Assembly (NCBI RefSeq): GCF_004010195.1
Contig: NC_057756.1
Location: forward strand, 10,047,442 to 10,088,366
Length of the DNA stretch: 40,925 nucleotides
DNA from: Chiloscyllium plagiosum
Lineage: Eukaryota
Direction: 5' to 3'
Below the pieces are notes generated by a model, which did no database searches, had not been told where the DNA came from, and worked only from the letters and a program-made list of their open reading frames with translations. The position numbers and the translations under genes are program-made. Of this stretch, positions 1 to 32,700 are shown one piece after another. The number at the start of each line of letters is the position of its first letter. Within the stretch, counting starts at the first letter, position 1.

Positions 1-399
1 CTGCCATCCATCACATACTGTTGCTGTTGCAAATTCCTCATCGCTTCTGTCAGTCTGTCCAACCGGTCCACTTGATCTGATAAGATTCGCATCCAACAGC
101 ATTTATGGCAGATATAATCCGCAGTAACCCTTAAATTCTCTTTAAACTTCCACATCTGACAAGAAGTACATATCACTGCAAAGGCCATTTTTGCTCCTTC
201 ACAATCTACAGACCCAGAAAATAACACCATCTTATTCCTCTACAAACACTGCCCCATGTTAAATTAATAGTTATATTTTAAGTTTAATCAAGAGACTTAT
301 CTCCAAAAACATATAATCAAGAAAGAATCCACTGTACCCACTACTGCAGCCTTTCTCTTGGACAGACTTAAAACAACAATTGACTTATCTGATTCTGTT

Positions 400-1975
400 G
401 GCTTCTGTCTTCCTTTTATGTATTTGAAGAGGTTCTTGCTGTCCATTTTGATATTACATGTGAGCTTAGCCTTCAAGTTTATTTTCTCCCTATTTATTTT
501 TGGAAACCAACAAAAGATGACCAAACTTTCCCAGTCCTCTGACTTATTAACATTTGCCACATTTTATGTATGTGTTTTCCTTTCGATTTGTGCTATCTTC
601 AACTTCCTCACTGGAATAGGTCTTTGCTGTAAGCCACAAATTATTACCTTAAACATCTGCCATTTGTTCCTCAACTACCTTTGTTGCTAAACTCCATTCC
701 TCGTGCACTCCAGCCAGCTCCACCCTTGGTCCTGAATAATTTGCCTTATTTGAGCTTAGCACAGTTGTTTCCAACCCAAGTTTTTCTATCTCGAACTGAG
801 TACTAAATTCTATCATCAGGGTCACTGTTTCCAAGGAGATATCTGACATCATTTATTAAACTTTGCACATCTTCAGATCCAAGATAGCCTAATTCATGGT
901 TAAATCCACAACGTATAGTTCTAGGAAACTATAGCAAATACATTCTATGAGTTCTTCCTCATGGATTCCTCTGCCAACCTGACTATCCCAATCTACATTT
1001 ACTGTCTTTGTTACATGTCCTTGTTTTCTCCTGATTTATTCTCTGTCGCCCTGCCTCACTACTGTTAGGGGGCCTATAGACTACTCCTCCCAGTGTTGTC
1101 TTTTCCTTTTTTACTTCTGCTGCCCACCCCGTATGGATTCTGCATCTTCTGATTCAAGATCATTTCTTGCTATCATGTTTATTCCATCCTGTACTGACAA
1201 TGTTTCCCCACCACCCTTTCCTTCCTGCCTATCCTCTTCAGAAGTCACCATACTCTGAACATTTTAGTTTCCAGCTTTGATCACCTTGTCCTTTGATCAC
1301 GTAATCATTAACCTGTGATGATGCCATTAATTTGGTCTGAATACTAAATGCATTCAAGTAGAATTAATTTTGCTTTTTTGCCATTTTTTTCCCTCTTTAG
1401 ACCCTATTTACAGCTGTTTTCCTGTTTGCAAATTCTGTCCCATCCTGTTCTCCTCTGGTTATAGTTATCCAAACAGTTGCCCTGTAATGCAGCGATATCC
1501 TCTTGCTTTGTCAGCTGATATTTCCCCTCCTCCCAAATTCATCCCCCCTTCCTTAATTAGTTTAAAGCTGTCTCTACAGTCCTAATTATTCAACTCACCA
1601 GGAATCTAGTCCCAGCACAGTTCAAGTGAAGCCCATCCCACCAGAATAGCCCCTTTTACCCCAGTCCTGGTGTCTGTGCCCATTCTACCCATACCAGTCT
1701 GAGCTATGCAAATAACTCCTTGATTTTAATTACTCTATGCTGATTTATCCATGGCTCAGGTAGCAATCTAGTAATTATTACCTTGTACGCTCTTCATTTG
1801 AAGTACTGATTTTTAATTTCACTCCGTGTTCAAAGACTTTCGGTAAAACACCCTTTCCAGATCCATCAATGTTGGTGATATCAATGTGGGTGATAATGAC
1901 TCTATTTCACCTGTCTCTCTTAAAATTCCTCTCCAGCCTCGGGGAGATGTCCCTAACATGCAACACTGCCTTTAG
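400..1975 (-). mobile_element. Degenerate CR1-type LINE remnant
   Basis: Minus-strand fragments such as NLFKYIKGRQK and nucleotide resemblance to CR1 ORF2/ORF1; boundaries approximate. Confidence 0.55.
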
Positions 1976-2039
1976 GACTCCCAATCACAGCTGATCAAGA
2001 CCCCTGACCCTGATCAAGATCGAGCCCAAAAAGGATTAC

Positions 2040-3045
2040 TCTAAATATCTCATCATGCACATGTGACAATGCAGGAGTCCTTTCACCCTACTTTGGGAAC
2101 ACCAGTCTCAAATATGTTGCTAATTTCATTCTAATAGATTAGAGTGAAAAATTACAAGGAGATAATTGACAAGAAATTAAAAATATTACTTTCAACACAT
2201 CGTAGGGCTGTGCGGAGATCCTCGAGTTCACGAGAAACCTTGTAAACATACAGAACATATGGAATGTCACGATCATCTTCAGACATGGAACTGTCCATCA
2301 GAATATCTTTGTGTACATCCCCTTGTCCATAACATACCACTGGAATAAGAGACCACATAATAAATCAGTTATCATGATACATGACAAGTGTTTACTCAAT
2401 CTCAGCAGGAACAAAATTCTCAAGTGCCAGAGAAAAAGGGGGATTAAATTTATAGTTGCAGGCCATTAATCGCATTAAGCTTCTTCTCATATTCAACCTT
2501 CTTGCTCATATATGATCCTCTTTCAGCCACCATCCTCCTCACACATATCTCCCCTAAAATTGTCCGCTTCCTCTCCCTTCTCCAGACTGCTTCCCATTCC
2601 TCTTCGTCAACTCTTCAACTTTTTTTTCACCCTCCCCCAATACCCATCGCCCCCATCCATTCCACTTCCTTGGCTGAGTACAGGTCCAACAACTATCGAG
2701 AAACTCAGCACTATAAAGGAAAAAGAGCAGCCCACTTTGTTAAACCTTACTGGGGTCGTGTGCTGGAAACCAAGTACAGGGTGACTGGTTTGTACTTATG
2801 AAAGGTGTCCCTGACGTACTAATTCAAAGTCACAGCTTACAGCACCTGTTGACATTAAAATAAACTGATATTTTAGTGAACAGTAACAGCTCCTGGGCTG
2901 GTGGGGATCAAATGGCTTCTCTGCTTCTTCAATGTTCAGAACTGTTCATTAACCCAAGAACCAATCACATAGTCTTTGACAGGCAAATGACCTTTGTAAT
3001 CAATAATAGTCATTAGTCCACCATCCAATCCGATGCCTTAAAACA
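2040..3045 (-). pseudogene. Decayed coding-like relic of unknown family, apparently continuing at about 4060-4200 beyond the Tx1 insertion
   Basis: Long protein-like stretches (YKFNPPFSLALENFVPAEIE*...EDDRDIPYVLYVYKVSRELEDLRTALRCVESNIFNFL) with scattered stops. Confidence 0.3.
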
Positions 3046-4058
3046 ACGATGCTCGCACCAGTTGGAGAATGCTCAGGTGTGCGGTGGAATCCCGTCTGTG
3101 TTTACCCCTGCCCGGACGGAATTTCACATTGGTCCCAAGGTCCCATAATTCCCGCGGGAGCCTGTGCCCCACAACCTGAGCTGCCTCCGGAATTTTAGTT
3201 TTGTCCCTTTTAAGGACGTAAGGACGTAAAAAGGCGAGCCCTGTATTGACTGCTGCTGCACACCGTCCACCTCTCCTCCCATCCACCGTCCGGACATGCC
3301 TTGGCGTGCCCATTCACCACCGGGCGGTGGGGATCCCCAGTGGAGGGCTCTCTACGTGGGAGTCCTCCCCCTTTCTCTCGGGGATCTGGGATGGAGGGTG
3401 CTGCACGCAGCGGTCCCCTGCAACCGCAGATTGTGGTGGTTCACAGACTCCCAGCCCAATTGCTTGTTCTGTGGTGCTGTGGAGTCCATGGACCACGTGT
3501 ATATTGGGTGTGAGCGTTTGCACTCCCTTTTTGATTTTCTCAAAAACCTCCTCCTTTGCTTTTGGTTGCACTTCAGTCCCATGCTCCTGATCTTCGGGCA
3601 CCCGGTACGGAGGAAGGAGGGCAGGTCTGAAGACCTCCTCATGGGTCTGCTCCTGGGCCTGGCCAAACTGGCCATAAACAGGTCCAGGCAGCGGGCCGTG
3701 GAGGGGGTCGTTAGGGTCAACTGCCTGCCCCTCTTCCGCAGTTACTTTAGAGCCCGGGTGTCTCTGGAAAAGGAACACACAATGGCCACCGACACCCTGG
3801 AGTTGTTCAGGGAGAGGTGGGCGCTGCAGGGAGAGGAGTGCATTATTTCCCCCTCCAACTCTATTTTGATTTAATCCCTGCCCTCCCATTCACTGTTTGA
3901 TCACACAGCATTGCCCTTTGATGTGAAGGGCACTGCTTGTAACAGGCTACTCGGGTGTTTCCTTTCTTTCTGGTGGTGGAAATTGAATAAAGATTTGTGC
4001 ACCTTGTGTCTCTCACTGTGTCTCACACCTGCACACACACATAAAAAAGGAGAAAAAG
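3046..4058 (+). mobile_element. 5'-truncated Tx1/L1-clade LINE (ORF2 C-terminal zinc-binding region plus 3' UTR)
   Basis: ORF 3296-3874 has LGWRVLH...CLFCGAVESMDHVYIGC (zf-RVT-type CCHC), AATAAA near 3987, an A-rich tail, insertion next to TTAAAA, and AACA on both sides. Confidence 0.88.
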
Positions 4059-4967
4059 AACACTGCCTGGCTCCAGCTCATCTACAGTGAGTATCAGGTC
4101 ATTTGCCTTAAAAAAACTGCAATAATCTTTCAATAATTGTTAATTTTAAGCATTTCTTTTACCATTTCACTCCTCAATTTAAAAATACAGAAAAATAAAG
4201 ATATATCTTCACACCTGGATTGGCATCTCATCCATCACCTTAAATGTACACTCCTTCACAGCTGACCAACAATGGCAGCGCTGTGTACCATCTCCAAGAT
4301 ATCCTGCAGCTCCTTCACAGTCCCATCACTATCCACGATCTCTGCTACCTTTTAAGAACAAGCACAGCAAACGGAGGGGGAGGCACCAACTGAAGGTACC
4401 CCTCGAAGTCCATTACAATGAGGAACTACGTCACTATCCTTCATCATCCCTGGCCCAATTCCAGGGATGGTGAAGGAAAGTGTCAGTGTAGTCACAGATG
4501 GACTGCAGGAGTGCTCAGCACCACCTTCACCAACTGTGTGACTACACACAGACATTGCATGAACAAAATGGATTTCTCAAATCTGCCCATTGAAGACTGA
4601 TCAACTTCTCTGCCCATTATGTTCTTATCACCTTTGACAGGCCTCACTGTCCACCTCCCTGTAGTACTTCCTCCGCCCCATAACCACAACTCCTCATCTC
4701 CACCAACTCCCGATCACACTTTCCAACCTCCAGATTCTGTGTTCCCTCTCCATCATGCATCCTCCCATATTGCCCTTTCCTTTCCTCACACACCCTCTCC
4801 TCCCTCCCACACATTCTCCCTCTTACCCTCCCATACTTTCTGTCTCTCCGTTCTTCTTACCCACTGCACTCTCTATCTCTTCCTTGTTCTCAACCTTCCA
4901 CAACCTCTCACTGTCCCGCACTCTCGAACAAATTCTCGCAATACCTCTCCCTTGCCTTCTCCTCTCT

Positions 4968-5165
4968 GAATCTGGATTAGTGGTGCTGGAAGAGCACAGC
5001 AGTTCCGGAAGCATCCAAGGAGCTTTGAAATCGACGTATCGGGCAAAAGCCCTTCATCAGGATTTCAAAGCTCCTCGGATGCTGCCTGACCTGCTGTGCT
5101 CTTCCAGCCCCACTAATCCAGAATCTGGTTTCCAGCATCTGCAGTCATTGTTTTTACCTCGTTGA
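4968..5165. mobile_element. Penelope-derived inverted (hairpin) pLTR remnant
   Basis: tctggattagtggtgctggaagagcacagcag... is followed by its reverse complement; mutated hammerhead core in the middle. Confidence 0.8.
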
Positions 5166-5272
5166 CTTTCTCCTCTCTGCAGCCTCCTCTACCTCCTTCC
5201 TTCTGTCTGGGCTTTGTGATTCTGAGCCCGGGGCGGGGGGTGAGGTACAAGAGCAAATTGCCCCCACCTTGA

Positions 5273-6358
5273 TTACCAACCTCTGAACCTCAGGTTCCGG
5301 TGCTTTAACCGTCTGTATAAGAAAATGGCAAGAATAATGACGATCGCGATCAAAATCCGGGTTACGTACTGGTTTTCCCAATATCCCACTGAAATTATTT
5401 GACATTGTGTTCGATCCGAGTCTCCCTCCGCTATTAACGGGAGTTGTGTTCCCGGATCCGACTCTCCCTCCGCTATTACCGGGAGTTGTGTTCCCGGATC
5501 CGACTCTCCCTCCGCTATTACCGGGACTTGTGTCCCCGGATCCGACTCTCCCTCCGGTTTTACCGGGAGTTGTGTTCCCGGATCCGACTCTCCCTCCGCT
5601 ATTACCGGGAGTTGTGTTCCCGGATCCGACTCTCCCTCCGGTTTTACCGGGAGTTGTGTTCCCGGATCCGACTCTTCCTCCGCTATTACCGGGAGTTGTG
5701 TTCCCGGATCCGACTCTCCCTCCGGTTTTACCGGGAGTTGTGTTCCCGGATCCGACTCTTCCTCCGGTTTTACCGGGAGTTGTGTTCCCGGATCCGACTT
5801 TCCCTCCGCTATTACCGGGAGTTGTGTTCCCGGATCCGACTCTTCCTCCGCTATTACCGGGACTTGTGTTCCAGGATCCGAGTCTCCCTCTGGTTTGACT
5901 GGGAATTGTGTTCCCGGATCCGACTCTTCCTCCGCTATTACCGGGAATTGTGTTCCCGGATCCGACTCTCCCTCCGCTTTTACCGGGACTTGTGTCCCCG
6001 GATCCGACTCTCCCTCCGATTTTACCGGGAATTGTGTTCCCGGATCCGACTCTCCCTCCGATTTTACCGGGAGTTGTGTTCCCGGATCCGAGTCTCCCTC
6101 CGCTTTTACCGGGAATTGTGTTCCCGGATCCGAGTCTCCCTCCGGTTTTACCGGGAGTTGTGTTCCCGGATCCGAGTCTCCCTCCGGTTTGACTGGGAAT
6201 TGTGTTCCTGGATTTGACGGTCCCTTCTGTCTGTATAAGAAAATAGCAATGACAAGCAGGATCACTGTCGTGACCCATGTCCGGCGTAAGTACTCGGATT
6301 CCCAATGTCTCTCTGGTGCTTTTTGAAGCGGTTTTCCAGAATGCGACCGTCCTGCCAT
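5273..6358 (-). CDS. Uncharacterised membrane protein: TM - (14-aa repeat)x19 - TM - basic tail, 361 aa from the first ATG
   Basis: ATG in strong Kozak context (AAAATGG); hydrophobic segments WVTTVILLVIAIFLY and ILIAIVIILAIFLY lie in the same frame on both sides of the array; several unit variants are synonymous in this frame. The frame stays open upstream to 6457, so it could be a spliced exon. Confidence 0.6.
   Translation of the reverse strand: MAGRSHSGKPLQKAPERHWESEYLRRTWVTTVILLVIAIFLYRQKGPSNPGTQFPVKPEGDSDPGTQLPVKPEGDSDPGTQFPVKAEGDSDPGTQLPVKSEGESDPGTQFPVKSEGESDPGTQVPVKAEGESDPGTQFPVIAEEESDPGTQFPVKPEGDSDPGTQVPVIAEEESDPGTQLPVIAEGKSDPGTQLPVKPEEESDPGTQLPVKPEGESDPGTQLPVIAEEESDPGTQLPVKPEGESDPGTQLPVIAEGESDPGTQLPVKPEGESDPGTQVPVIAEGESDPGTQLPVIAEGESDPGTQLPLIAEGDSDRTQCQIISVGYWENQYVTRILIAIVIILAIFLYRRLKHRNLRFRGW
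5413..6213. repeat. 42-bp tandem repeat, 19 copies (cccggatccgactctccctccgctattaccgggagttgtgtt)
   Basis: Directly visible; encodes PGTQ(L/F/V)PV(K/I)(P/A/S)E(G/E)(E/D)SD on the minus strand. Confidence 0.97.
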
Positions 6359-6747
6359 TTTCACTGGACGCCTTATTCCAGGATCCGACTCTCCCTCTGA
6401 CGGACTTTCCCTCCGCTTTTCCTGGACTTTGACTGTCGACACCGGGAGAGTTGCCAATTAGGGGTTTGGTGGATAAGGAACAACACTTTCTCTTTACTCA
6501 CTCCGCGAATTCAAGATAACATGGAACAAACTGTGTAGGAATCGGTTTTACTAAAATGCATCAAGAATGTATCCAGAGGGAATGTGAATCTCAAAATTAC
6601 GGATAGCCCTGTGTAAGCATGAAACATGGAAAACCTTGATGAAGACCAGCACTCAGCAAGTCCAAAGGGGGACAGAGTTCATGGGCTGAACATCTCGTGC
6701 TCAACATTGAGTCTCGGATGCTGTAAAGTGACTCAGAAGATGAGCTG

Positions 6748-7122
6748 CATTTCCGCCACCTCCAAAAAGACCCCACTACCAGGGATATATTTCCCTCCCC
6801 ACCCCTTTCCGCCTTCCGCAAAGACCATTCCCTCCGTGACTCCCTGGTCAGGTCCATGCCCCCCTACAACCCACCCTCCCATCCTGGCACCTTCCCCTGC
6901 CACCGCAGGAACTGTAAAACCTGCGCTCACACCTCCTCCCTCACCTCCATCCAAGGCCCTAAAGGAGCCTTCCACATCCATCAAAGTTTTACCTGCACAT
7001 CCACTAATATCATTTATTGTATCCGTTGCTCACGATGCGGTCTCCTCTACATTGGGGAGACTGGGCGCCTCCGAGCAGAGCGCTTTAGGGAACATCTCAG
7101 AGACACCCGCACCAATCAACCA
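6748..7122 (+). mobile_element. Penelope-like element, GIY-YIG endonuclease fragment
   Basis: ORF 6856 reads CHRRNCKTC...FTCTSTNIIYCIRCSRCGLLYIGETGR...RFREH. Confidence 0.9.
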
Positions 7123-7215
7123 NNNNNNNNNNNNNNNNNNNNNNNNNNNNNNNNNNNNNNNNNNNNNNNNNNNNNNNNNNNNNNNNNNNNNNNNNNNNNN
7201 NNNNNNNNNNNNNNN

Positions 7216-7889
7216 NGGGTTGTAGAGGGGGCGTGGACCTGACCAGGTAGTCATGGAGGGAACGGTCTTTGCGGAAGGCGGAAAGGGGTGGGGAGGGAAA
7301 TATATCCCTGGTGGTGGGGTCCGTTTGGAGGTGGCGGAAATGTCGGCGGATGATTTGGTTTATGCAAGGGGTGGAAGGTGAGCACCAGGGGCGTTCTGTC
7401 CTTGTTACGGTTGGAGGGGTGGGGTCTGAGGGTGGACATGTGGGATGTGGACGAGATGCGTTGGAGGGCATCTTTAACCACGTGGGAAGGGAAATTGTGG
7501 TGTCTAAAGAAGGAGGCCATCTGGTGTGTTCTGTGGTGGAACTGGTCTTCCTGGGAGCAGATACGGCGGAGGCGGAGGAATTGGGAATACGGGATGGCAT
7601 TTTTGCAGGAGGTAGGGTGGGAAGAGGTGTAATCCAGGTAGCTGTGGGAGTGGGTTTGTAAAAAATGTCGGTATCAAGTCGGTCGTCATTAATGGAGATG
7701 GAGAGTTCCTGGAAGGGGAGGGAGGTGTCGAGCACGAGGTGCTGCCAATGCAGTCATCAATGTAGCGGAGGAAGAGGTGAGGAGTGGTGCCAGTGTAACT
7801 ACGGAAGATCAACTGTTCTACGTAGCCAACAAAGAGACAGGCATAGCTGGGGCCCATATGGCTAGCCCTTTGGTCTGGAGGAAGTGGTT
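7216..7889 (-). mobile_element. Penelope-like element, reverse transcriptase/thumb fragment, frameshifted
   Basis: QTKG.AMGPSYACLFVGYVE, FLRYIDDC, TDIFYKPT; its start is an inverted copy of 6748-6875. Confidence 0.9.
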
Positions 7890-8790
7890 TTTAAACTCTA
7901 CCATGCAAGTAACCTCCATGAGCTTCATAAGCGCTTCCAGATTCTTGTCCATGTGTCCACATGTTAAAAAAAGTTTGCTGAACCATTTCAAATTCATTGT
8001 TAGTTGCATTAGACATTTGCTTTAAATTTGGAAACTTCAGTCTCCGTGTTTTCGGAATTACTGCTATGCTTCCACGATAGTCTTTTATCGCAGTGTAGAA
8101 AAAGTCTTGCTTTTTAACTTTAACAACAGTACATCTTTCCTGAGATAAGGGGAACGAGCTCAACTACATTCCCAAAGTTGTCTGCCTTGTTTTATGAAAT
8201 AACCGTCCCTGCTGCTGTTCACAGAATTCTGCTTGGCATGTTTTGATTTTACTTACATCAGGAGAGACGTCTGTTTCGTGATCAGTTTCAACATCATTAT
8301 ATGGTTTGTACAGTCACAGTGCTGAATATACTTGCAGCTTTTTCCTGGAGTAATGCATACTGGGTATGTTGCATTCCTATTAGTAATGAGTTTTACACTG
8401 CAGCTATTTTTCCAATTCCCTCAGCTTTTCGCTTTCCTTATCCAACTTTAAAACACACAATGACCACCACAGGCTGACTTATTCTTGCAAGCTTATGAAG
8501 GACACACTCATAATTACTATCGCATATTGTTACAATTTTCAGCACAGCGCCCTCTGCCAATAATCCTATCTTTTCCATAAACTATCAGTCGCATTTTAGA
8601 ATATCCCAATGCTGTGATACCTTTAATCGATAACTGCTGCATCTCAAAGCCAATTAAACACCGAAATCTGTGTTCCACTCCCGCCACAACGTTGATTTTA
8701 GAGGGGTTGTGATCACAGTTACATAATATAAGCACCGTCAGCTTTAAAACATTAAAATTGCGAAAGGTGCTATTTAGATGCAAATTTCTT
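7890..8790 (-). pseudogene. Decayed coding-like relic of unknown family, apparently continuing at about 6750-6500 beyond the Penelope insertion
   Basis: Overlapping protein-like ORF pieces (7818-8009, 7891-8163, 8517-8783), CpGs retained, no resemblance to the repeat families I recognise. Confidence 0.3.
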
Positions 8791-22019: not shown

Positions 22020-22182
22020 GAGCAACAGAGTAAACGTTTTTGAGTCAAGGAGGAGAACTGGAGGTTCTGAAGAATAGTCCTTCTGGACCTGAAATATGTC
22101 TTTACAGATGCTGCTGTCAGTGTTCCCAGCATTTTTCTGTTTTCATTTCAAATTTCCAGCCTCTGCAGTATTTTGCCTTTTA
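22020..22182 (+). mobile_element. Old Penelope-derived short repeat overlapping the IFI44L-like stop codon
   Basis: cagcatttttctgttttcatttcaaatttccagcctctgcagtattttgc resembles the reverse complement of 9010-9090; degenerate CTGAAGA..GTCC-TTCT-GGAC..GAAA. Confidence 0.55.
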
Positions 22183-22337
22183 AGTTTAATAGATGGGTCT
22201 ATGTTTTTGACTATATTTTTCAGAGCGTACAAAGCAAGAATACATTTTGTCTTCTCAATCTTATCACCTTTCCACTCATTCGAAATAGCAAACATGGTGC
22301 GTTTTTTCATCCCAGTATAATCCGACAACATTGCAAA
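22143..22337 (-). CDS. IFI44L-like terminal exon (FAMLSDYTGMKKRTMFAISNEW...ILALYALKNIVKNID...NLK*)
   Basis: Strong acceptor ctccctttctctttcctag, phase 0, ends in TGA; resembles the IFI44 C-terminal helix. Confidence 0.82.
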   Translation of the reverse strand, partial: FAMLSDYTGMKKRTMFAISNEWKGDKIEKTKCILALYALKNIVKNIDPSIKLKRQNTAEAGNLK

Positions 22338-25300
22338 CTAGGAAAGAGAAAGGGAGACAGGTAAATTGATATGAAATGAGTTGAGGTGATTATATTCTAC
22401 ATCACCAATAAAATGTACTGACATTAGCTGATCATTGGCTTATTGCTGCTTGAGGGAGCTTGCTGTGTACAAACTGGCTGCTGTATTTCCTGTATTGCAA
22501 CAGAATCCCAATTTGCTGTGAAATGTTTGGGAAATGCAGAGATTATGAAAACAATTATCATTTAAGTCTGTTGTTAAACTGGAGAGGGTGCAGGAAAGAC
22601 TTACAAGGATGTTACCAGAACTGGAAGGTTTGAGATCTCGGAAGAGGCTGGAAAATGCTGGGGCTTTTTTCCCCTGGGAGATTAGAGGCTGAAATGTTGA
22701 CCTTATGTATAAAATCATGACAGCTATGGATAGGGTAAATAGGCAATGTCTTGTTTTCCCCCTAAAGTAGGGGACTCAAATTGGAGGGTATAGGTTTAAA
22801 GGTGAAATGGGTAAGAATTAAAAGAATCTGAGGTGTAACTTTTTCATTTAAATTGTGGTACCGTGAATGGAGCGAGCTGCCAGTGGAGTGGTGGAGGCTG
22901 GTACAATTACAGCATTTAAAAGGCATCTGGATGGATATATGAATAGGAAGGGTTTAGAGGGACATGGGTCAAATGTTAGTAAATGGGACTAGATCATACT
23001 GGGATGTCTGGTCAGTGAGTTGGACCAATGGGCCTGTTTCCGTGCTGTATAGCTTCATGACTCTCGAAGTCATTTTGAATCATGAGGAAAGCTCACCACT
23101 GGGTCAAAATCCTGAAACTCCCTTCCAAGCAGTACTTCAGATGTAATCACACAGAGTGCAGGCCTTGTTCAAGGTCGTGACTCATCATTGCCTTCTCAAA
23201 AGTAGTTAGGGCCAGGCCACAAATGTTGGCCATGCCTTGTTGTTCACATCCCATGAAAGAATAAAAATGATGTTAGCTCCCCAAAAGTTTGTTGATACAA
23301 CTTCCCTTCAGTAATATCATTTTGATTCTGTCACTCTCTTTGTGTGCCTATCCCTCTGCCATCCCATCTATTTTTGTCACATCTGCAAACATGGCGATTG
23401 GATATTCACTTTGCTAATCCAAGTCACTGATGTATAGTGTCAATAATTGTTACTCCAGCACTGATTCCTATGACACACCACTAGTTCCAGATTTAACCTT
23501 CCTGGAAATGCTCTCTGTATCCCAAATTTTCTGTCTTCTATATTCCAATCCTTAAAACCTGATGAGGAAATATATAACTCTTCTTTTACTGTCATCACAC
23601 CTGTTTTTATGTTGTATAGTGCACTTGATTTTAGAAATGAAAACCCTTCAATTACCTTCCGTTTTAGTTTTCTGTTTTCATAAATGCGATTATAGCTTTT
23701 CTGTGGTATCCTCAATCGATCAAAGTTGTTCCCAATCACAATATTGTAAATACCTGAAAAGAGACGATAGTTGAAAAAACGAATGTTAAATGTAAAACAG
23801 AATGGTGACAAAGGTTTATCAGCAGACAGCAAAATAATCTTACCTTTCTGTGATACAATGGTTTGTAGTTCCTGAAATTGCTTCATCAAATCCATATTAA
23901 TGCCCTCCATAGTGAAAATATTAAAAATGAATGCAACAGCATGAATTACATTTTCTGGAATGACTGGATTTTGTGCACCATCTGAATGAGGATTGAAATC
24001 CTGCAACTAAGGTGAAGAAAAATAAACCTGTTATACTGAAAGCTACCATAAATATTCATAAGTATTCTGTATTAAGGAAAATGCTGATTGAAGGGGTTCC
24101 TATCAGCCCCTCTTTTTTTTTCCCCCACAACATTCCTGATGAAGGTCTTATGCCCAAAACATCAACTCTCCTGTTCCTCAGATGCTGCCTGACCTGTGCT
24201 TTTTACAGTGCCATACATTTTGATTGACTTTCCAGCATCTGTCATCCTCACTTTCTCCCATTTGTGTCATACAAGACCCATTCATCTTATTCACCAATCT
24301 TAGTGAGATCAAGATTGCCCCCATACTGAAAGGGTTGCCTTCACTCTCCATGAAACCAGAACAGTGTATTCTTCACAATTTATTTATTTTCCCATGTTTC
24401 ATTTTCTTTGTGCATTTAAGACGATGCTTTACATTTCAGTTATATGCTCTTCGGTTACTTTGCTTAATCTGTTCTTTAATACTCTGTCCTTGTGTGTTGT
24501 TCTTGGACTATTCTGTGTTTAGTCACGCTGTCCTGTGCATAATTCTTGGATTATTCTCTAGAATTTTCTATTACTGGGTTTTAAAATTCATTCAAGGGAA
24601 ATGGGCATTACTGGCTAGGCCAGCAATTATTGCTCATCCCTACTTGCCCAGAGGGCATATGAGAGCCAACTATATTGTGGGTTTTGAGTCACATGTCAGT
24701 CAGACCAGGTAGAGACAGCAGACTTCCTTCCTTTTTAAAGGACATTAGTAAACCAAGTGATCACATGATTGCCCTTGGTTAGATTTTTATTGAATCTTCC
24801 AAGGTATTCAAACCCATATCCTCAGAACATTAGCTGGGATCCTGCGTTACTAATCCAGTGATATTACCACCCTACCACTGCCTCCCCAACTCCAAAGCTG
24901 TGTGTTAATTTTGATTTTTCCATTAATTACACATTTTCCACTGATATATTTTGACGTACAGATCTATCTTGGAATGCTTAATTCAAATGCATCACTATTC
25001 ACTTTTAACGTGGAGTCTGAAAAGGTATTTTCAATTTTCTGTGGTCTCAGAACAAATACATTTTTTACATATAGCATTGCTCTTCCATATTTTCTTCAGA
25101 TATTTTGGTATAAACCCAATTACAAATCCCTTTAACTGATTTCATTATGGTACATTGTATTGATGTAGTTTATTGTAGCAGTAGATTTATGCAAAATTTT
25201 CTTACTTTCAGACTTGGCTTAGTTTCATCTTCTGCATGAAATATTAAATCAAAGCTCCCTTCAGCAGTTCGAAACAACAATTTATTGATTTATCACTTTC

Positions 25301-28300
25301 CTGTTTTGTGGGAATTTGTTGTGTTTTCTGCATTGTTAAGCATAATATTCTAACTTGAAAACCTATCAATACAGTATAAACTCTTGGCTTTTTGATAACC
25401 TTTGTGTTTTGGGGTATTGAGCACATGCTTTGTTTTGACAGATATTCCTTTAAGTCTAAAGTAAAGCCTTTGGTATGAGTGGATTAAAAAGACCAGAAGT
25501 CACATGACACCAGGTTATCATCCAACAGGTTTATTTGAAACCATAAGCTTTCAAAGGTGTTGCTCGTTCATCAGGTGAAGAAGCAATGCTCAGAAAACTT
25601 ATGATTTCAAATAAACCTGTTGAACTACAACCTGGTATCATGTGACTTCTGACCTTATCCACTCTAGTCCAACACTGGCACCACCACAGAGTGAGATAGT
25701 ACTTGTAGACCTGCGCTTTGTTGGTCTGGACGGTGTCCAAGAATGTGGGATAGATCACAGTCACTGGTTAAAACGACTAATGTGCAGAATTCATTTGAGT
25801 GACAAAATGAGGGATCCTATGTATCGGAGAGTACTTTGGAGAATTCTGCAACAACTCTCCAACAATGCATGGTGCTACATGCCACAGGCTAACAATGTGC
25901 ATAGTTTACAAAGTGGAAAAGGCTGACAGAAGTATCACTTTAATATTTTGAGAAATACAACACTTTTTCAATTCTGGCACTATGTGCTCTGGTCTCTGAA
26001 GTTAAAGTGAGCACACAACCAACTTGCTGTGAGATGGAAGTGCTACCAGTTTAGCTTCTGCTGTCAGATACAAAGCTTTGTCGTGTAAACATTGCCCCTC
26101 ATTCCAAAGAAGAGCTTGAATTTAGTGAAATTGTCTGAAGTTTTACAAGTATGAAATTGTTTTGTAAACTCACAACAGTTCCTGGTGGCACCCTTCCTTC
26201 CAGTATCATTGTTAATAGTTCCTTTCTCTTGTCCACATCTTTCAATGAATCCCAGCCAGCAGTATCCCAAAACTGCAATGAGTTTGACTTGTAGGACTTG
26301 AGCTGTTAAATAATTTTAAAAAAGATTTACAATTATACAGTTCCTCTCACATCCTTAGCATGACCGAAAGATCTTTACTGTCAGTGAAGCAACATTCTGA
26401 AATCTGTTCACGGCTGCAATACAGAAAATATCAGAATCAATTTCTGACCAGCAGACACCCACAAACAGCAATGAGTTAAATAACAAATCATTTGTTTTCA
26501 ACATGGTCAGAGGACAAATATTGATCCTAGTCATTAGGATGACCACCTCTGCTATTCAAAATAATGGCTGTGGGATCAGTGAAGGCTTCTGTAGTGTTTG
26601 TTTTAACATCTTTTCCTAAAAATGTCACTTCATTGAGAGTGTCTGAATTAGTGTTCAAACTGCTGAAACAGAATTCAAATCTCAAACATATGGCTTAATG
26701 CACTGCTTCAATAAAAATAACTATACATATAAAAATCAAATTTAGGGATTGGATCATGTACAAGCAACATAACAGGGCCTTAAGGAGTGTAGTGGAACAA
26801 AGGGACCTTGGAGTTCAGGTGCAGGGTTGGTAGACAGGGCAGTGAAGAAGGCTTTTGGCACACTGGCCTTAATCAGAAAGAACAAAGAAAATTTACAGCC
26901 CAGGAACAGACCCTTCAGCCCTCCAAGCCTGAGCTGATCCAAATCCACTGTCTACATCTATTTCCCAATTCCTAAGCATCTGTATCCCTCTGCTCCCCAC
27001 CTACTCATGCATCTGTCCAGATGCACCTTAAATGAATCTACTATGCCTGCCTCCATTACCTCTGCTGGCAACACGTTCCAGGCACCTACAACCCTCTGTG
27101 TAAAATATTTGCCATGTATATACACTTTAAACTTTTCACCTCTCACCTTGAAAGCATGACCTCTCGGTATTGAATCCTTCACCCTGGGAAAACGCTTATC
27201 TCTATCTACCCTGTATATACCCTTCATTATTTAATAAACCTCAATCAGGTCCCCCCTCAATCTCCTTTTTTCTAATTAAAACAATCCTAACCTACTCAAC
27301 CTCTCTTCATAGCTAGCACCTTCCATACCAGGCAACATCCTCATAAACCTTCTCTGCACCCTCTCCAAAGTATCCACATCCTTTTGGTAATGTGGCGACC
27401 AGAACTGTACACAGTATTCCAAATGCGGCCGAACCAATGTCTTGTACAAATTTAACATGACCTGCCAGCTCTTATACTCAATACCCTGTCTGATGAAGGC
27501 AAGCATACCATGTGCCTTCTTGACCACTCTATGCACCTGTGCAGCCACCTTTGGGTACAATAGACTTGAACTCCCAAATCTCTCTGCTCATCAACTTTTC
27601 CCAAGGCTCTTCCATTTACAGTATAGTTTGCTCTAGAATTAGACTTCCCAAAATGCGTCACCTCACATTTGCCTGGATTGATCTCCATTTGCTACTTCTT
27701 CGCTCAACTCTCCAATTTATCTATATTCTCCCATATTCTTTGACAGTCCCTTATGCTTTCTGCTACTCCACCAATCTTTATGTCACCTGCAAACTTACTG
27801 ATTAGACTAACAATGCCCTCTTCCAGATCATTTATGTATCTTACAAACAACAGTGGCCTGTTGCTCAACCAGTTCTTTATCCACCTAGCCAGAACACCCT
27901 GCACACCATGTGACTTCACTTTCTCCATTACTCTACCATGGGAAACCTTATCAAACGCCTTACAAAAGTCCATGTATATGAAATCTACAGCCCTTCCTTC
28001 ATCTATCAACTTGGTCACTTCCTCAAAGAACTCTATTAAGTTGGTAAGGCACGATCTACCCCACACAAAACTGTTGCCTATCACTGATAAGCCCATTCTT
28101 TTCCAAATATAAATAGATTTTATTCCTCAGTAACTTCTCCAGCAACTTTCGCACTACTGATGTCAGGCTTACTGGTCTGTAGTTATCAGTCAAGACACTG
28201 AGCATAGAAGTTGGGAAGTTATGTTACAGTTGTTAAAGATATTGGTGAGGCCACATTTGGAGGATTCTGTTCAGTTTTGATCACCTTGCTATAGGAAGGA

Positions 28301-29698
28301 TGTTATTAAACTGGAAAGAATGCAGAAGAAATTTACAAGCATGTTGCGAGGACTTAAGGGTCTGAATTATAGGGAGAGGTTGGACAAACTAGAACATTTT
28401 TCTTTCGAGCGTAGGAGACTGAGAGGGGGATTTTATAGAAGTGTATACAATCATGAGAGGCATGGATAGGGTGAATGCGCTGAGACATTTTCCCAGGGTT
28501 GGGGAATCAAGGACTAGAGTTTAAGGTTCAAGGGGCAAGAATAAAAGGGAACCTGAGGGGCAACTGTTTTACACAGAAGGTGGTACACATGTGGAATGAG
28601 CTGCCAGCCTAAGTGGTTGAGGCTGGTACATTAACAACATTAAAAATAGCATTCAGACAAATACATGGAGAGGAAAGGTTTAGAAGAATATGGGCCAAGT
28701 GCAGGGAACTGGGGTTAGTGTTGATGGACATTTTGGTTGACATGGACCACTTTGGGCCGAAGGGCCTGTCTCCGTGCTGTGGACTCTCTAATAGTGCAAA
28801 AGCCGTGAGTTCAAATCACACTTTCTAAATTGAGCAAAATACCCTTGGTCATTTCAAACTTTTATATTGTTCAAAGAGAACAGATATGCCATTAAAGCTT
28901 TTCATCTTGCACTGATAAGGACCGAATCACAGGAATATGAAATTTCAAAGGGTAAAAATCACCCAATTTAATACTGAACATCAGCTTTAAAAATCTTTTA
29001 AGTGCCAGTCTCAGTAACTGATGCTATTGGATTGTGTTAAATATCTAACCGTGTCATTAATCTGCCTGAAGGGAAGGGCAGCTGTCATTCTTTCCAAGCC
29101 GGGTCTCGATGTGGAGAAAGTGAGGACTGCAGATGCTGGAGATCAGAGTGGAAAAATGTGTTGCTGGAAAAGCGCAGCAGGTCAGGCAGCATCAAAGGAG
29201 CAGGAGAATCGACGTTTCGGACATAAGCCCTTCTTCAGGAAAATGAAGAAGGTTATGCCCGAAATGTCGATTCTCTTGCTCCTTGGATGCTGCCTGACCT
29301 CCTGCACTTTTCCAGCAACACATTTTTCAGCTCTAATAAGACACAAGCACAAACATGCATTCAATGTAACAAAATGCAGGGATTTATTAAAGTTCAATTC
29401 AGTATATTTTTGACAGTTCTTAAAGCTTTGCACTCTTCAACCTAGCCACAAAAAGAAAGGAATCCAAATTATAATCCATATAATAGCTTGGTATAACTTA
29501 TTCTCAGTAATTCCTATGGAAATGTGTTTTTATTAAAATAAATGTATTTTGCTAAGTTACACAGTCATTGTGAAACAATCAGTCCTGACACCTGGGTGAA
29601 GGAAGATCATGTCCAAGGGCTATAACTTTCACATCAAAGACCCTCTCCCAAGGTCCCAATGCATTATGTCATTACAGCCCCTCAAGTGTGTTTGTGTC

Positions 29699-29736
<38 letters not shown>

Positions 29737-32700
29737 TGATAAAACTTCTATTATCATTTCATGACAGTGTTCTAAAACCAGAAAAGGAACATATTTTATT
29801 CTTAATACTGGTTCCCAAAGGAGAGGTATCAGACTCATTTTTAAATATTAACGTGCTGAATAAGCTGCTGAAATATAAAATTCAGTATCATGTTGGCGTG
29901 TTTTAAAGTTTAAACGTCATTAAATTTAATAAAAATGAACTAATTCCACACAACCATGTGAGCTATCAATCAAAGTTTTCTTTTCAAAGTATGACAAATG
30001 CAAATTTTTGTTAATTGGTATAACCTCTCTAACTGAACCCTCAAATACCAAAATATGGTGACAATGACATTTTAAATTGTGCACTTTTAATAAATGTTTG
30101 CAGGAGATAATCAGACAAAAAGATTTATGTGAGACAAACCCTTTTTGGAAATTTGGTCAATAATTTGATTTGCGGGGGCAAATTTTAGAGCTTAGGATCT
30201 AGATGGTTGAAGGCAAATTCATCAATGGTAGTGCAACAAAAGTTAAGGATACGTGAGAGATAAAATTTGGTAGAATAAAGATGATCATTGGTAGGCTGTA
30301 AAGTGACTAAGACCATGAAGGATTTGGACGCAAGTATGTTCATTTTTAATTCAATGATTTTTCAGTTTGAGAATCATTTTAGAACGACAAGTGTGATATA
30401 TTATGTATGGGTATTTTTAGTTAGTGTACTTCAGTCTCCTGGAATAAAGAAGTTGTAATCATATAATTTATCTCATAACCTTGAGGCATTCCCAACATAT
30501 ATTAGAGCTAATTAAATAATAGTAGTGGCTACAGATTTCTTGAATCAATTCCAGGTACCACTGATAACAATAATGAAATGATGCAAAAACAACTGAAGAT
30601 AAATGGGTGAATTATAAATAGGAGTAGGCCATTTAGCCTTCAAGGCAGCTGTGCCATTCAGTTAGGTCACAGTTGATCTGGTTGCTCCATATTCTCCAAA
30701 AGCCTTTTACCCTCTTCCACGAATCTTTAATTCCTCTCTGGCCACAGGGGAAGTGCCAGAGGACTGGAAGGTGGCAAATGTAGTTCTACCTTTTAAGAAG
30801 GATGCTAGAGATGAACCAGGAAATTACAGAATGGTGAGTCTCATTGTCAGTGATAGGGAAAGTAGTGGAGAAAATTCTGAAGAAGTGAATTAATACCCAC
30901 TTGGAAAGGCATGGGGTTAATTAGGGGTAGTCAGCATAGCTTTGTCAGAGGGAGGTCATGTCGAACAAATTTGTTAGAACCTTTGAAAATGTGATCATTT
31001 GTGCGGATGAGGGAAGTTCAGTTGTTGTAGTTTATGTGGATTTTAGCAAAGCTTTTAACAAGGTCACACATGGGAGACTAAATGAGAAGGTTAAAGCCGG
31101 ATGGGATGGAGAAAAACTGGCTTACGAATAGAACATAAAGGATAGTGGTAGAAGGCTGTTCGAGTGACTGGAGGCTTGTGTCCAGTGGTATACCACTTGG
31201 CTCAGTACTGGAACCTTATTGTTTATTATATACATAAATGATATAGATAAAAATGTGGGGGGCATGCTAAGCAAATTTGTAGAGGGTACTGGTTGGGTCG
31301 GCGGGAAAGGAAGAAGCAGAGGGCTTTGAGGCCTTCGTGATGGGGGATGGAGGTGTATAGGGACTGGATGTCCACGGTGAAGATAAGGCATTGGGGACCG
31401 GGGAAGCGAAAATCATGGAGGAGATGGAGGGCGTGGGAGGTGTCCCGAACATAGATGGGGAGTTCTTGGACTAAGGGGGACAGGACCGTGTCTCGATGTG
31501 ACAACATTTAAAAGACATTTAGACAAATATATTGAGAGGAAAGGTTTAGAAGAATATTGGCCAAGTGCAGGGAAATGGGTTGATTCTTAACGAGTTGTAT
31601 CTGGGTGAGAAAGGGTGGGCACTAAGTACCAGCCTTGCCTACAATGCCTACATTCTAAGGATTTAATTTCAAAAATAGGTGGGAGAGGGTACCTTGGTTG
31701 TGATAGAATCAGGATGGACTCCAGTTGGGACACAGCTTATCGTTCTTCTACTTGGATTCAGAGCTGAGAGAAATGTATTAATGGTGGCTGATTTACCAGC
31801 TCCCACCAAGCCAACCAGCAAGATGTTTATACAGTGCCCACATTTTGTGGGAGGGTTGTATGTAGACAGATGGCACCTCAGAGCTTCCAAGACACTGTCA
31901 AAGAACAAGAATTAAAGGAGTTAGATCTCAGGGTGAATTTGTTCAAATAAAGTAAACATTATTCTTCTTGTACCTGGTTTGGAAACACAGTTCCTGAACA
32001 AGACAACTTACCTATGGTTACTAGTTAAACGGCGAACAACATGATACCTTGGATGTTTCTGCTTTGAAAAATCTGAAATTAAAATTTATTACGTTAAATT
32101 CTACTTCTTAAATATCAGTGGGATGCAGAAACAACACACTTACAACCTCCCACATCAGCATTCAGTTATAATTACAAAATCCATAACATGCAAAAGAATT
32201 AAATAACTAGTGTCCAGGCTTTGAAAAAAATCAAATTGATTTTATATTAATTTTCCCTTTAGAAATGACCCTGACAATGGACTGCAATTTATGTCCAGGC
32301 ATATTTCACAGGTTCCTGTATGTGTGGTAAGGGTGACATTATCAGACATATGGCCTCCAGCAGGCAGAATTCGCACTTGGGTAGATCAGGCAACTTTCTC
32401 AGAGATGTTCGCAATGATTGACATAATTGTAGATGCACATAGAATTAGTATCCAGTGCTTTGACTAGCAAATTTGACCAAGATCGAGCTTGTTTGAGAAC
32501 AATTGGAAATTGTTATACAATTGTGTTATTCATCACAAGATTAACAAGTTGACTGTGCAAATACAAATAAATTGTTATTGTTTTGTAGCCATTATGGAGA
32601 CATGGTTGCAAAGTGACCAAAGCTAGAAATTGAATATTCAAAAGGTATTTGATCCTTTTGAAGAATAAAGAAAAAATGTCATTGTTCATGAAGAGAATGA

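Follow-up and report, generated by a model that had tools for sequence, protein, structure and literature searches.

A bamboo shark gene among IFI44-like genes is predicted to encode a membrane-anchored, repeat-bearing protein with an unnamed C-terminal domain

Results

Features of the locus

The window analyzed here is the whole stretch of 40,925 nucleotides from the bamboo shark Chiloscyllium plagiosum (G000:C47:10047442-10088366), and positions given without a contig label are counted from its first letter. Its minus strand carries an open reading frame (ORF) of 361 codons (6358-5273), which a first-pass annotation had picked out and which proved to be present, as did the strong Kozak context of its ATG at 6358 (A at -3, G at +4), the 19 PGTQ units recovered by translation and the two hydrophobic segments that enclose them (residues 28-42 and 335-348). 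The location downstream of an IFI44-like gene also holds, with that neighbor ending 15.8 kb upstream of exon 1 (Table 1). The IFI44-like gene is frame-consistent, has its own stop at 22143 and contains G1 and G3 motifs; its first exon was not found. The G4 position of this gene (in 23656-23753) reads NNFD, without the usual lysine. Direct splicing of the IFI44-like gene into exon 1 was considered and rejected, as the gene terminates at its own stop (22143-22145) and no sign of a join was seen.

Table 1 Features of the locus, with positions in the window unless a contig is named
Feature	Position	Strand	Remarks
Predicted coding exon 1	5281..6358	-	1078 nt; phase-1 end at GT donor; N-tail, helix 1, repeats, helix 2, basic juxtamembrane stretch
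Helix 1 (residues 28-42)	6233..6277	-	Apparent DNA duplicate of the repeat-plus-helix-2 unit; likely signal-anchor or signal peptide
Repeat array	5413..6213	-	19.1 x 42 bp, 92% matches (Tandem Repeats Finder); codes for acidic, Pro-rich loop
Helix 2 (residues 335-348)	5315..5356	-	Anchor common to the single-helix relative P0006
Degenerate repeat-like sequence upstream of ATG	6359..6457	-	In frame up to stop 6458-6460; probably 5' UTR
Predicted intron 1	2340..5280	-	2941 nt, GT-AG, phase 1; contains retroelement remnant and SINE-like repeats
Predicted coding exon 2	2190..2339	-	150 nt, phase 1-1; first half of C-terminal domain; 45/49 residues identical to ortholog
Start of predicted intron 2	1..2189	-	Phase 1, GT-AG
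Predicted exon 3	G000:C47:10037080-10037312	-	10 kb outside the window; 233 nt with stop; 74/76 residues identical to ortholog
Neighboring IFI44-like GTPase gene	22143..31890	-	Exons about 31890-31693, 26302-26174, 24006-23844, 23753-23656, 22337-22143
Penelope-like retroelement pieces	6760-7890	two orientations	GIY-YIG match E 9e-5; just upstream of the gene
zf-RVT-bearing retroelement remnant	3296-3874	+	E 2e-5; inside intron 1

Inspection of the loop between the two helices reveals 269 residues with a net charge of -46 and 46 prolines, the longest proline-free run being 8 residues; a sequence scan of the loop returned no N-glycosylation sequon. Three of the six frames are free of stops across the repeat array, so that openness over the array could by itself be due to chance. 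What fixes the coding frame is comparison with the ortholog described below, where the N-terminal part outside the repeats is identical at 41 of 49 residues and unit spacings differ by whole codons: the ortholog has 13 repeat units versus 19 in the bamboo shark, and of its 12 spacings, 3 lack exactly one codon. The remaining open frames over the array (5157-6497 on the minus strand and one plus-strand frame) have no Pfam match or other support and are read as shadows. A Pfam SH3_7 match on the ORF (E 2.6e-12) was set aside, as it arises from the repeats and no individual stretch is significant by itself. Matches of the repeats within the same genome, at 16-40% identity, were judged compositional. 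The non-repeat N-terminal part matches the bamboo shark genome at the exon-1 locus only. Upstream of exon 1, a phase-1 AG at 6432 (12/20 pyrimidines) could be a candidate acceptor.

The reading frame is predicted to be the first of three coding exons

Among 8000 scored candidates, a single relative of the whole ORF was found, the 382-aa protein XP_060708658.1 of Hemiscyllium ocellatum (P0001, LOC132833970). This ortholog shares the start methionine, both helices and the repeat unit, and after ...NLRFR it runs into a C-terminal domain of 127 residues. A GT donor lies in the window at 5281/5280, exactly where the ortholog leaves the ORF. Intron sequence would then account for the stop of the ORF and its final two residues. 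Given the ortholog model and the intact, in-phase GT-AG exons of the bamboo shark, the gene is modeled with three coding exons, whose lengths (1078 + 150 + 233 = 1461 nt) amount to 487 codons, or 486 residues and a stop, with no internal stops. It is thus very probable that the ORF is only the first coding exon of a predicted 486-residue protein that ends in the 127-residue domain. The first-pass view of a 361-aa product with a C-terminus of its own is probably wrong, since the ortholog model exits the ORF at ...NLRFR toward two more exons. The basic stretch RRLKHRNLRFR after helix 2 is real; its standing as the C-terminus of the protein was not confirmed, and in the spliced model it would be juxtamembrane. 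The product of the window gene itself was absent from protein database searches and from an exact look-up. Intron retention could still give rise to a shorter, minor product; a truncated isoform (P0041, 139 aa) is annotated for the relative P0006.

Sequencing reads bear on splicing in several ways. No RNA reads across either predicted junction were seen in the sequencing runs examined, where the four runs that contain exon-1 words look like DNA, with uniform 13-17x depth and unspliced sequence over 6205-6745. Two contigs of run X4 lose their match precisely at the donors at 5281 and 2190 and run on for 28 and 948 nonmatching letters. Depth at these ends (2190 and 5281) is 55 and 31 versus 8-15 for intron contigs. 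These ends at both donors suggest a spliced form; the run type is not on record, and if the run is DNA, they would mean a processed copy of the gene in that animal. Of two single-cell runs, for both of which the 3' end of the gene falls outside the stretch examined, X5 (~2/100 sampled) has reads on the repeats and none on exon 2, and X6 has zero reads placed. A contig of run X3 fuses 30 bases of the helix-1 region (window 6224) to sequence of another contig (G000:C15:45616797, L039); the reference has no such gene piece at that site, and the contig is either a chimera or a structural variant. No ISRE-type site was found within 740 bases ahead of the ATG, where a weak IRF-like site lies at 6495, one of 5 in the window.

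Copies of exon 2 are found elsewhere in the genome. Orphan copies with flanking intron sequence lie at G000:C21:37139733-37139888 (L044), C29:8189431-8189580 (L048) and C2:80569901-80570104 (L050/L051), are 75-85% identical and are broken by stops or a frameshift. Neither exon 1 nor exon 3 occurs in the flanking stretches examined, and the copies look like DNA-level captures, not retrocopies.

The first helix appears to be a duplicate of the second

The two repeat-plus-helix units were compared at the DNA level. The unit that carries helix 1 aligns to the unit that carries helix 2 over ~180 bases. In Chiloscyllium punctatum, the relative P0006 has two degenerate repeats and one helix ahead of the domain, and it is closer to the helix-2 unit (49%) than to the helix-1 unit (31%). 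We infer from this alignment and from the better match of P0006 that helix 2 is the ancestral anchor and helix 1 its duplicate. P0006 groups as sister of the ortholog (support 99/96), and its exon-3 identity is only 76% versus 96-97% for the Hemiscyllium protein, so that P0006 is probably a paralog showing the layout before duplication. No separate P0006 copy was found in the stretches of the bamboo shark assembly that were searched.

The charges that flank each helix were used to consider topology. For helix 2, the charge difference (+6.5 in the bamboo shark, +7 in the ortholog) gives a strong C-in bias. The corresponding values for helix 1 are +1.5 and +3.5; this helix spans 15 residues and sums to -2.6 on the hydrophobicity scale versus -5.0 for helix 2. 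The domain would most simply remain in the cytosol if helix 1 served as a signal-anchor or signal peptide and left the loop outside. We consider this arrangement, with a lumenal or extracellular loop and a cytosolic domain, somewhat more likely than not. The earlier proposal that both termini are cytosolic thus describes the likeliest topology, but it conflicts with the charges of helix 1, which point the same way as those of helix 2.

The predicted fold of the C-terminal domain ties between G-domains, TIR domains and flavodoxins

No convincing Pfam family and no sequence match among solved structures were found for the 127-residue domain. AlphaFold2 models of two members that are 33% identical (pLDDT 85.7 and 86.7) each depict a small alpha/beta sandwich, with four strands of 3 or more residues in model 1. 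A Foldseek search of the PDB gave no match below E 0.16, the best TM listed being 0.47. Structure searches gave no match that reached Z 8 for either model; below that value, according to the tool, a match may reflect no more than a widespread arrangement. G-domains take up 10 of the top 12 VIA rows for model 1 (best Z 7.2, rmsd 3.3, 117 aligned), flavodoxins follow at Z 6.5-6.6 and the TIR structure 9lmq stands at Z 5.8 (rank 25); a second-look list is led by the flavodoxin-like NrdI at Z 6.9. For model 2, the same bacterial TIR (9lmq, TIR-STING; rmsd 3.6, 111 aligned) ties with the Roc GTPase domain of LRRK2 at Z 7.6.

Sequence comparisons were then set beside these folds. AIG1 or Ras families of Pfam match weakly within the domain in 3 of 44 relatives (E 0.0017, 0.09 and 0.29), and TIR families match 0/44 relatives in Pfam and 0/22 in PADLOC at E up to 1, a search in which a remote member could be missed. 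The G1 motif GxxxxGK[ST] is absent from the 31 aligned domains, which have a Y-G-x-G-x-[VI]-H type of sequence after strand 1, without Gly-Lys-Ser/Thr; neither G3 DxxG nor G4 [NT]KxD is conserved in the same alignment, and the end of strand 3 mostly reads L-L-[EQD]-K. By hhalign, the domain shows no significant similarity to the IFI44-like G-domain (probability 0.1%, E 0.58), the latter being represented by a shallow alignment of six rows. An Asp in the second helix of the domain is at least 90% conserved and may sit roughly where TIR enzymes carry an acidic residue. We give the domain an even chance of being a stripped, nucleotide-free G-domain and lean to that origin over TIR descent, which is less likely, without assigning the domain to either class. 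The absent motifs predict that GTP binding has probably been lost.

Domain genes alternate with IFI44-like genes

A phmmer search with the domain among 1.84 billion sequences (E up to 0.001) gave 36 family representatives. The 20 of these 36 that were looked up all belong to sharks, skates or rays, and all named relatives are annotated as "uncharacterized" or "hypothetical". Among 56 family proteins, isoforms included, a helix precedes the first domain in 9, two helices occur in the ortholog alone, and many contain 2-5 domains in tandem. IFI44-like sequence follows the domain in 8 of the 56 and is missing from the other 48. The fusions come from three rays, Hemitrygon akajei, Mobula hypostoma and M. 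birostris, at several loci; they come from automated annotation of genes in tandem and could be read-through merges. Structure matches in the ESM Atlas (TM 0.70-0.73 to unnamed chordate clusters) and feature matches of 0.83-0.89, which serve as leads only, hint at a family wider than the 36 representatives from elasmobranchs.

On the bamboo shark contig, domain genes lie at 9.79, 9.98 and 10.04-10.05 Mb and IFI44-like exons at 9.82, 9.95-10.01, 10.07-10.08 and 10.12 Mb, such that the two alternate over 9.78-10.13 Mb. Half of the six own-genome matches to the IFI44-like P-loop exon fall within this cluster, the other three on two small contigs. Interleaving with IFI44-like genes, together with the ray fusions, supports by context the earlier suggestion of a lineage-specific immune-cluster gene. 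Gaps are frequent in this region, which also contains pieces that are broken or inverted. A fragment of domain exon 3 and IFI44-like exons 3-4 are inverted relative to their neighbors (G000:C47:9953924-9967830, 10118530-10123173), through inversion or misassembly, and exon 4 of one further IFI44-like copy is interrupted by a stop.

Several details concern the IFI44-like sequences themselves. The P-loop lysine is lost in the IFI44-like parts of the ray fusions P0007, P0055 and P0029 and kept in P0015, and the next IFI44-like paralog downstream of the window gene (G000:C47:10005424-10005615) also lacks it; from their sequences, the parts without this lysine may be pseudo-GTPases too. In the RefSeq models P0019 and P0037, domain exons are spliced directly to the IFI44-like exon that carries G4, and domain genes and IFI44-like genes both have a phase-1 intron in the loop before the G4-bearing strand. 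This splicing and the common intron position are suggestive of exon shuffling or remote kinship. A complex prediction for the last domain of P0055 with its IFI44-like part, run without alignments, scored 0.22 (mark 0.34) and was not counted either way.

A possible look-alike fold in a viral replicase model

The best viral match of model 1 is to the first 1366 residues of the replicase pp1ab of Chinook salmon bafinivirus (BFVD A0A2P1GMV5_1), with a Foldseek probability of 1.00, TM 0.70, rmsd 3.5 and 16% identity over 136 columns (E 0.031). Model 2 gives the same entry third by E-value (probability 0.97, rmsd 4.0, E 0.082). The next-best viral probabilities are 0.23 for model 1 and 0.51 for model 2. 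This is a comparison of model with model, neither E-value reaches significance, and the search output does not say which residues matched. A scan of viral contigs for sequence relatives gave 156 pattern matches, none confirmed, and the search for longer proteins covered 581-2000 residues, a range that viral polyproteins exceed.

A generic match of Rossmann type is possible, because the available text on white bream virus, a related virus, describes a Rossmann-fold methyltransferase at pp1a residues 1374-1668 (PMC9638943). No viral cap methyltransferase stands among the PDB matches listed. Isolates of the Chinook salmon virus differ by deletions of 537 and 480 nt in ORF1a, according to the accessible part of the report (PMC7290303). 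If the viral match is real, capture from host to virus would be the likelier direction, since the host gene has introns and belongs to a host multigene family. The opposite idea, put forward in the first-pass annotation, that the ORF is a retained viral membrane gene does not agree with the two GT-AG introns, the host multigene family or the viral contig scan, which found no relative.

Discussion

We read the gene as encoding a host membrane adaptor that docks the neighboring IFI44-like GTPases in antiviral defense, with a probability of roughly 0.4. Under this reading, helix 1 would act as signal-anchor or signal peptide and place the acidic repeat loop outside the cell or in the lumen, where the loop may be a length-variable spacer. 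A folded GTPase-like domain, probably nucleotide-free, would then lie beside the membrane in the cytosol and could dock IFI44-like GTPases there, a step suggested by fusion and clustering only. The ray fusions would be a soluble, covalently linked version of the same pairing of domain and IFI44. A role in interferon responses may go along with this.

A partnership with IFI44-like proteins, taken alone, falls a little short of an even chance and is proposed on the basis of clustering, fusion and the antiviral and regulatory roles known for IFI44. The portions available of two studies describe IFI44 as an interferon-induced antiviral and regulatory protein (PMC6712396; 10.1101/2020.02.24.963900), which dampens interferon through FKBP5 (PMC6712396) and restricts RSV without need for its G1 motif (10.1101/2020.02.24.963900). 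In zebrafish, 7 of 19 ifi44 genes are given as interferon-stimulated genes (ISGs) in the accessible text of 10.1101/693333, which also lists 14 fish-specific ISG families; these may, as far as that text goes, include bony-fish relatives of the domain.

Two alternatives accept the spliced gene and differ in what its domain or its helices do. The domain could be a divergent TIR-like module that signals by self-assembly, in a receptor or adaptor independent of IFI44. A helix followed by a cytosolic TIR is a common receptor layout, the up to five tandem copies per chain suggest homotypic contacts, the Asp conserved to at least 90% may fall roughly at the place of the TIR acidic residue, and 9lmq ties for first with model 2 at Z 7.6. 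The same structure reaches only Z 5.8 and rank 25 with model 1, itself built on four strands of 3 or more residues, and with no TIR profile match in Pfam (0/44) or PADLOC (0/22) we regard this alternative as rather unlikely. Another topology has less to recommend it and is improbable: helix 1 could sit N-out with a cytosolic loop, topologies could be mixed, or a signal could be cleaved to leave a single-pass protein. With helix 1 N-out, helix 2 would have to insert against its bias of +6.5 to +7, and in single-helix relatives such as P0006 the helix separates repeat-like residues on its N-terminal side from the domain on its C-terminal side. These points are set against the origin of helix 1 as a copy of an N-out/C-in anchor unit, its charge difference (+1.5, or +3.5 in the ortholog), its shortness and lower hydrophobicity relative to helix 2, and a loop without any N-glycosylation sequon to mark the lumenal side.

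The remaining alternatives remove either the immune role or the domain. The gene might be a non-immune bystander that came to lie among IFI44-like genes through block duplication, with ray fusions that are annotation merges. The want of a clear ISRE and the broken, inverted pieces and many gaps of the region would fit such a history, which is nevertheless improbable in view of fusions that recur in three ray species at several loci and of the look-alike fold in a fish RNA virus model. Least credible of all is a single-exon product of 361 residues, either a BST2-like double-anchored tether or a retained viral membrane gene. That the unspliced frame ends three codons past the donor and that the truncated isoform P0041 is annotated for P0006 would be in its favor; it is opposed by two conserved, in-phase and stop-free downstream exons together with the ortholog model, by a loop incapable of forming a coiled coil and by the finding of no viral sequence relative in the phmmer search or the viral contig scan.

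Returning to the membrane adaptor as the preferred reading, its interest lies in the unsettled question of how IFI44 proteins act, for which a domain that travels with IFI44-like GTPases would be a testable partner. An extended version, in which membrane-anchored, pseudo-GTPase-like adaptors partner IFI44-like GTPases and the domain was captured by a fish nidovirus as a replicase decoy, is unlikely in its entirety. Were both parts true, IFI44 biology would gain a membrane-proximal partner and the pathway would be a viral target; the matching fold in a nidovirus replicase would mark a host pathway worth copying by a virus. The gene further illustrates how a single-pass protein may become a two-anchor protein via duplication of a repeat-plus-helix unit, with a spacer whose length varies between species, and it corrects the record in that the 361-aa ORF is probably not the protein. 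We found no published description of the domain family, of its link to IFI44 or of the viral match in the literature searched, which was without subscription papers and preprint supplements.

Among known systems, BST2/tetherin shares with the shark protein a short N-tail, an N-terminal helix (by hydropathy only) and a second anchor after a long ectodomain. In contrast to tetherin, the shark loop cannot form a coiled coil, with 46 prolines in 269 residues, and its second anchor is predicted to be a transmembrane helix, after which come a basic stretch and, in the spliced model, a domain with a polar end, with no terminal GPI signal. That is to say, the stand-alone tether of BST2 type first envisaged is not upheld, helix 2 being predicted to precede a folded domain. 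TIR-STING (9lmq) is alike in its similar size and parallel-sheet sandwich. Pseudo-GTPase domains have a small, G-domain-like alpha/beta fold without intact nucleotide motifs and are used as binding modules. Two of them, pG1 of p190RhoGAP-B (5u4v) and the CCAN chain 7pkn_M, which we take to be CENP-M, appear in the VIA list at Z 5.8 and 6.0; these middling values are below those of active GTPases, no sequence link was found, and neither is anchored by duplicated helices. IFI44 and IFI44L are the genomic neighbors and fusion partners of the domain, which differs from the IFI44-like G-domain in having no detectable homology to it and no G1, G3 or G4. Within the family, the ortholog, already annotated but uncharacterized, differs from the bamboo shark protein in its number of units (13 vs 19), and other relatives have one helix or none, tandem domains or an IFI44-like tail. 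The predicted layout that the two orthologs share would be that of a putative adaptor, anchored in the membrane and built around a domain without a family name.
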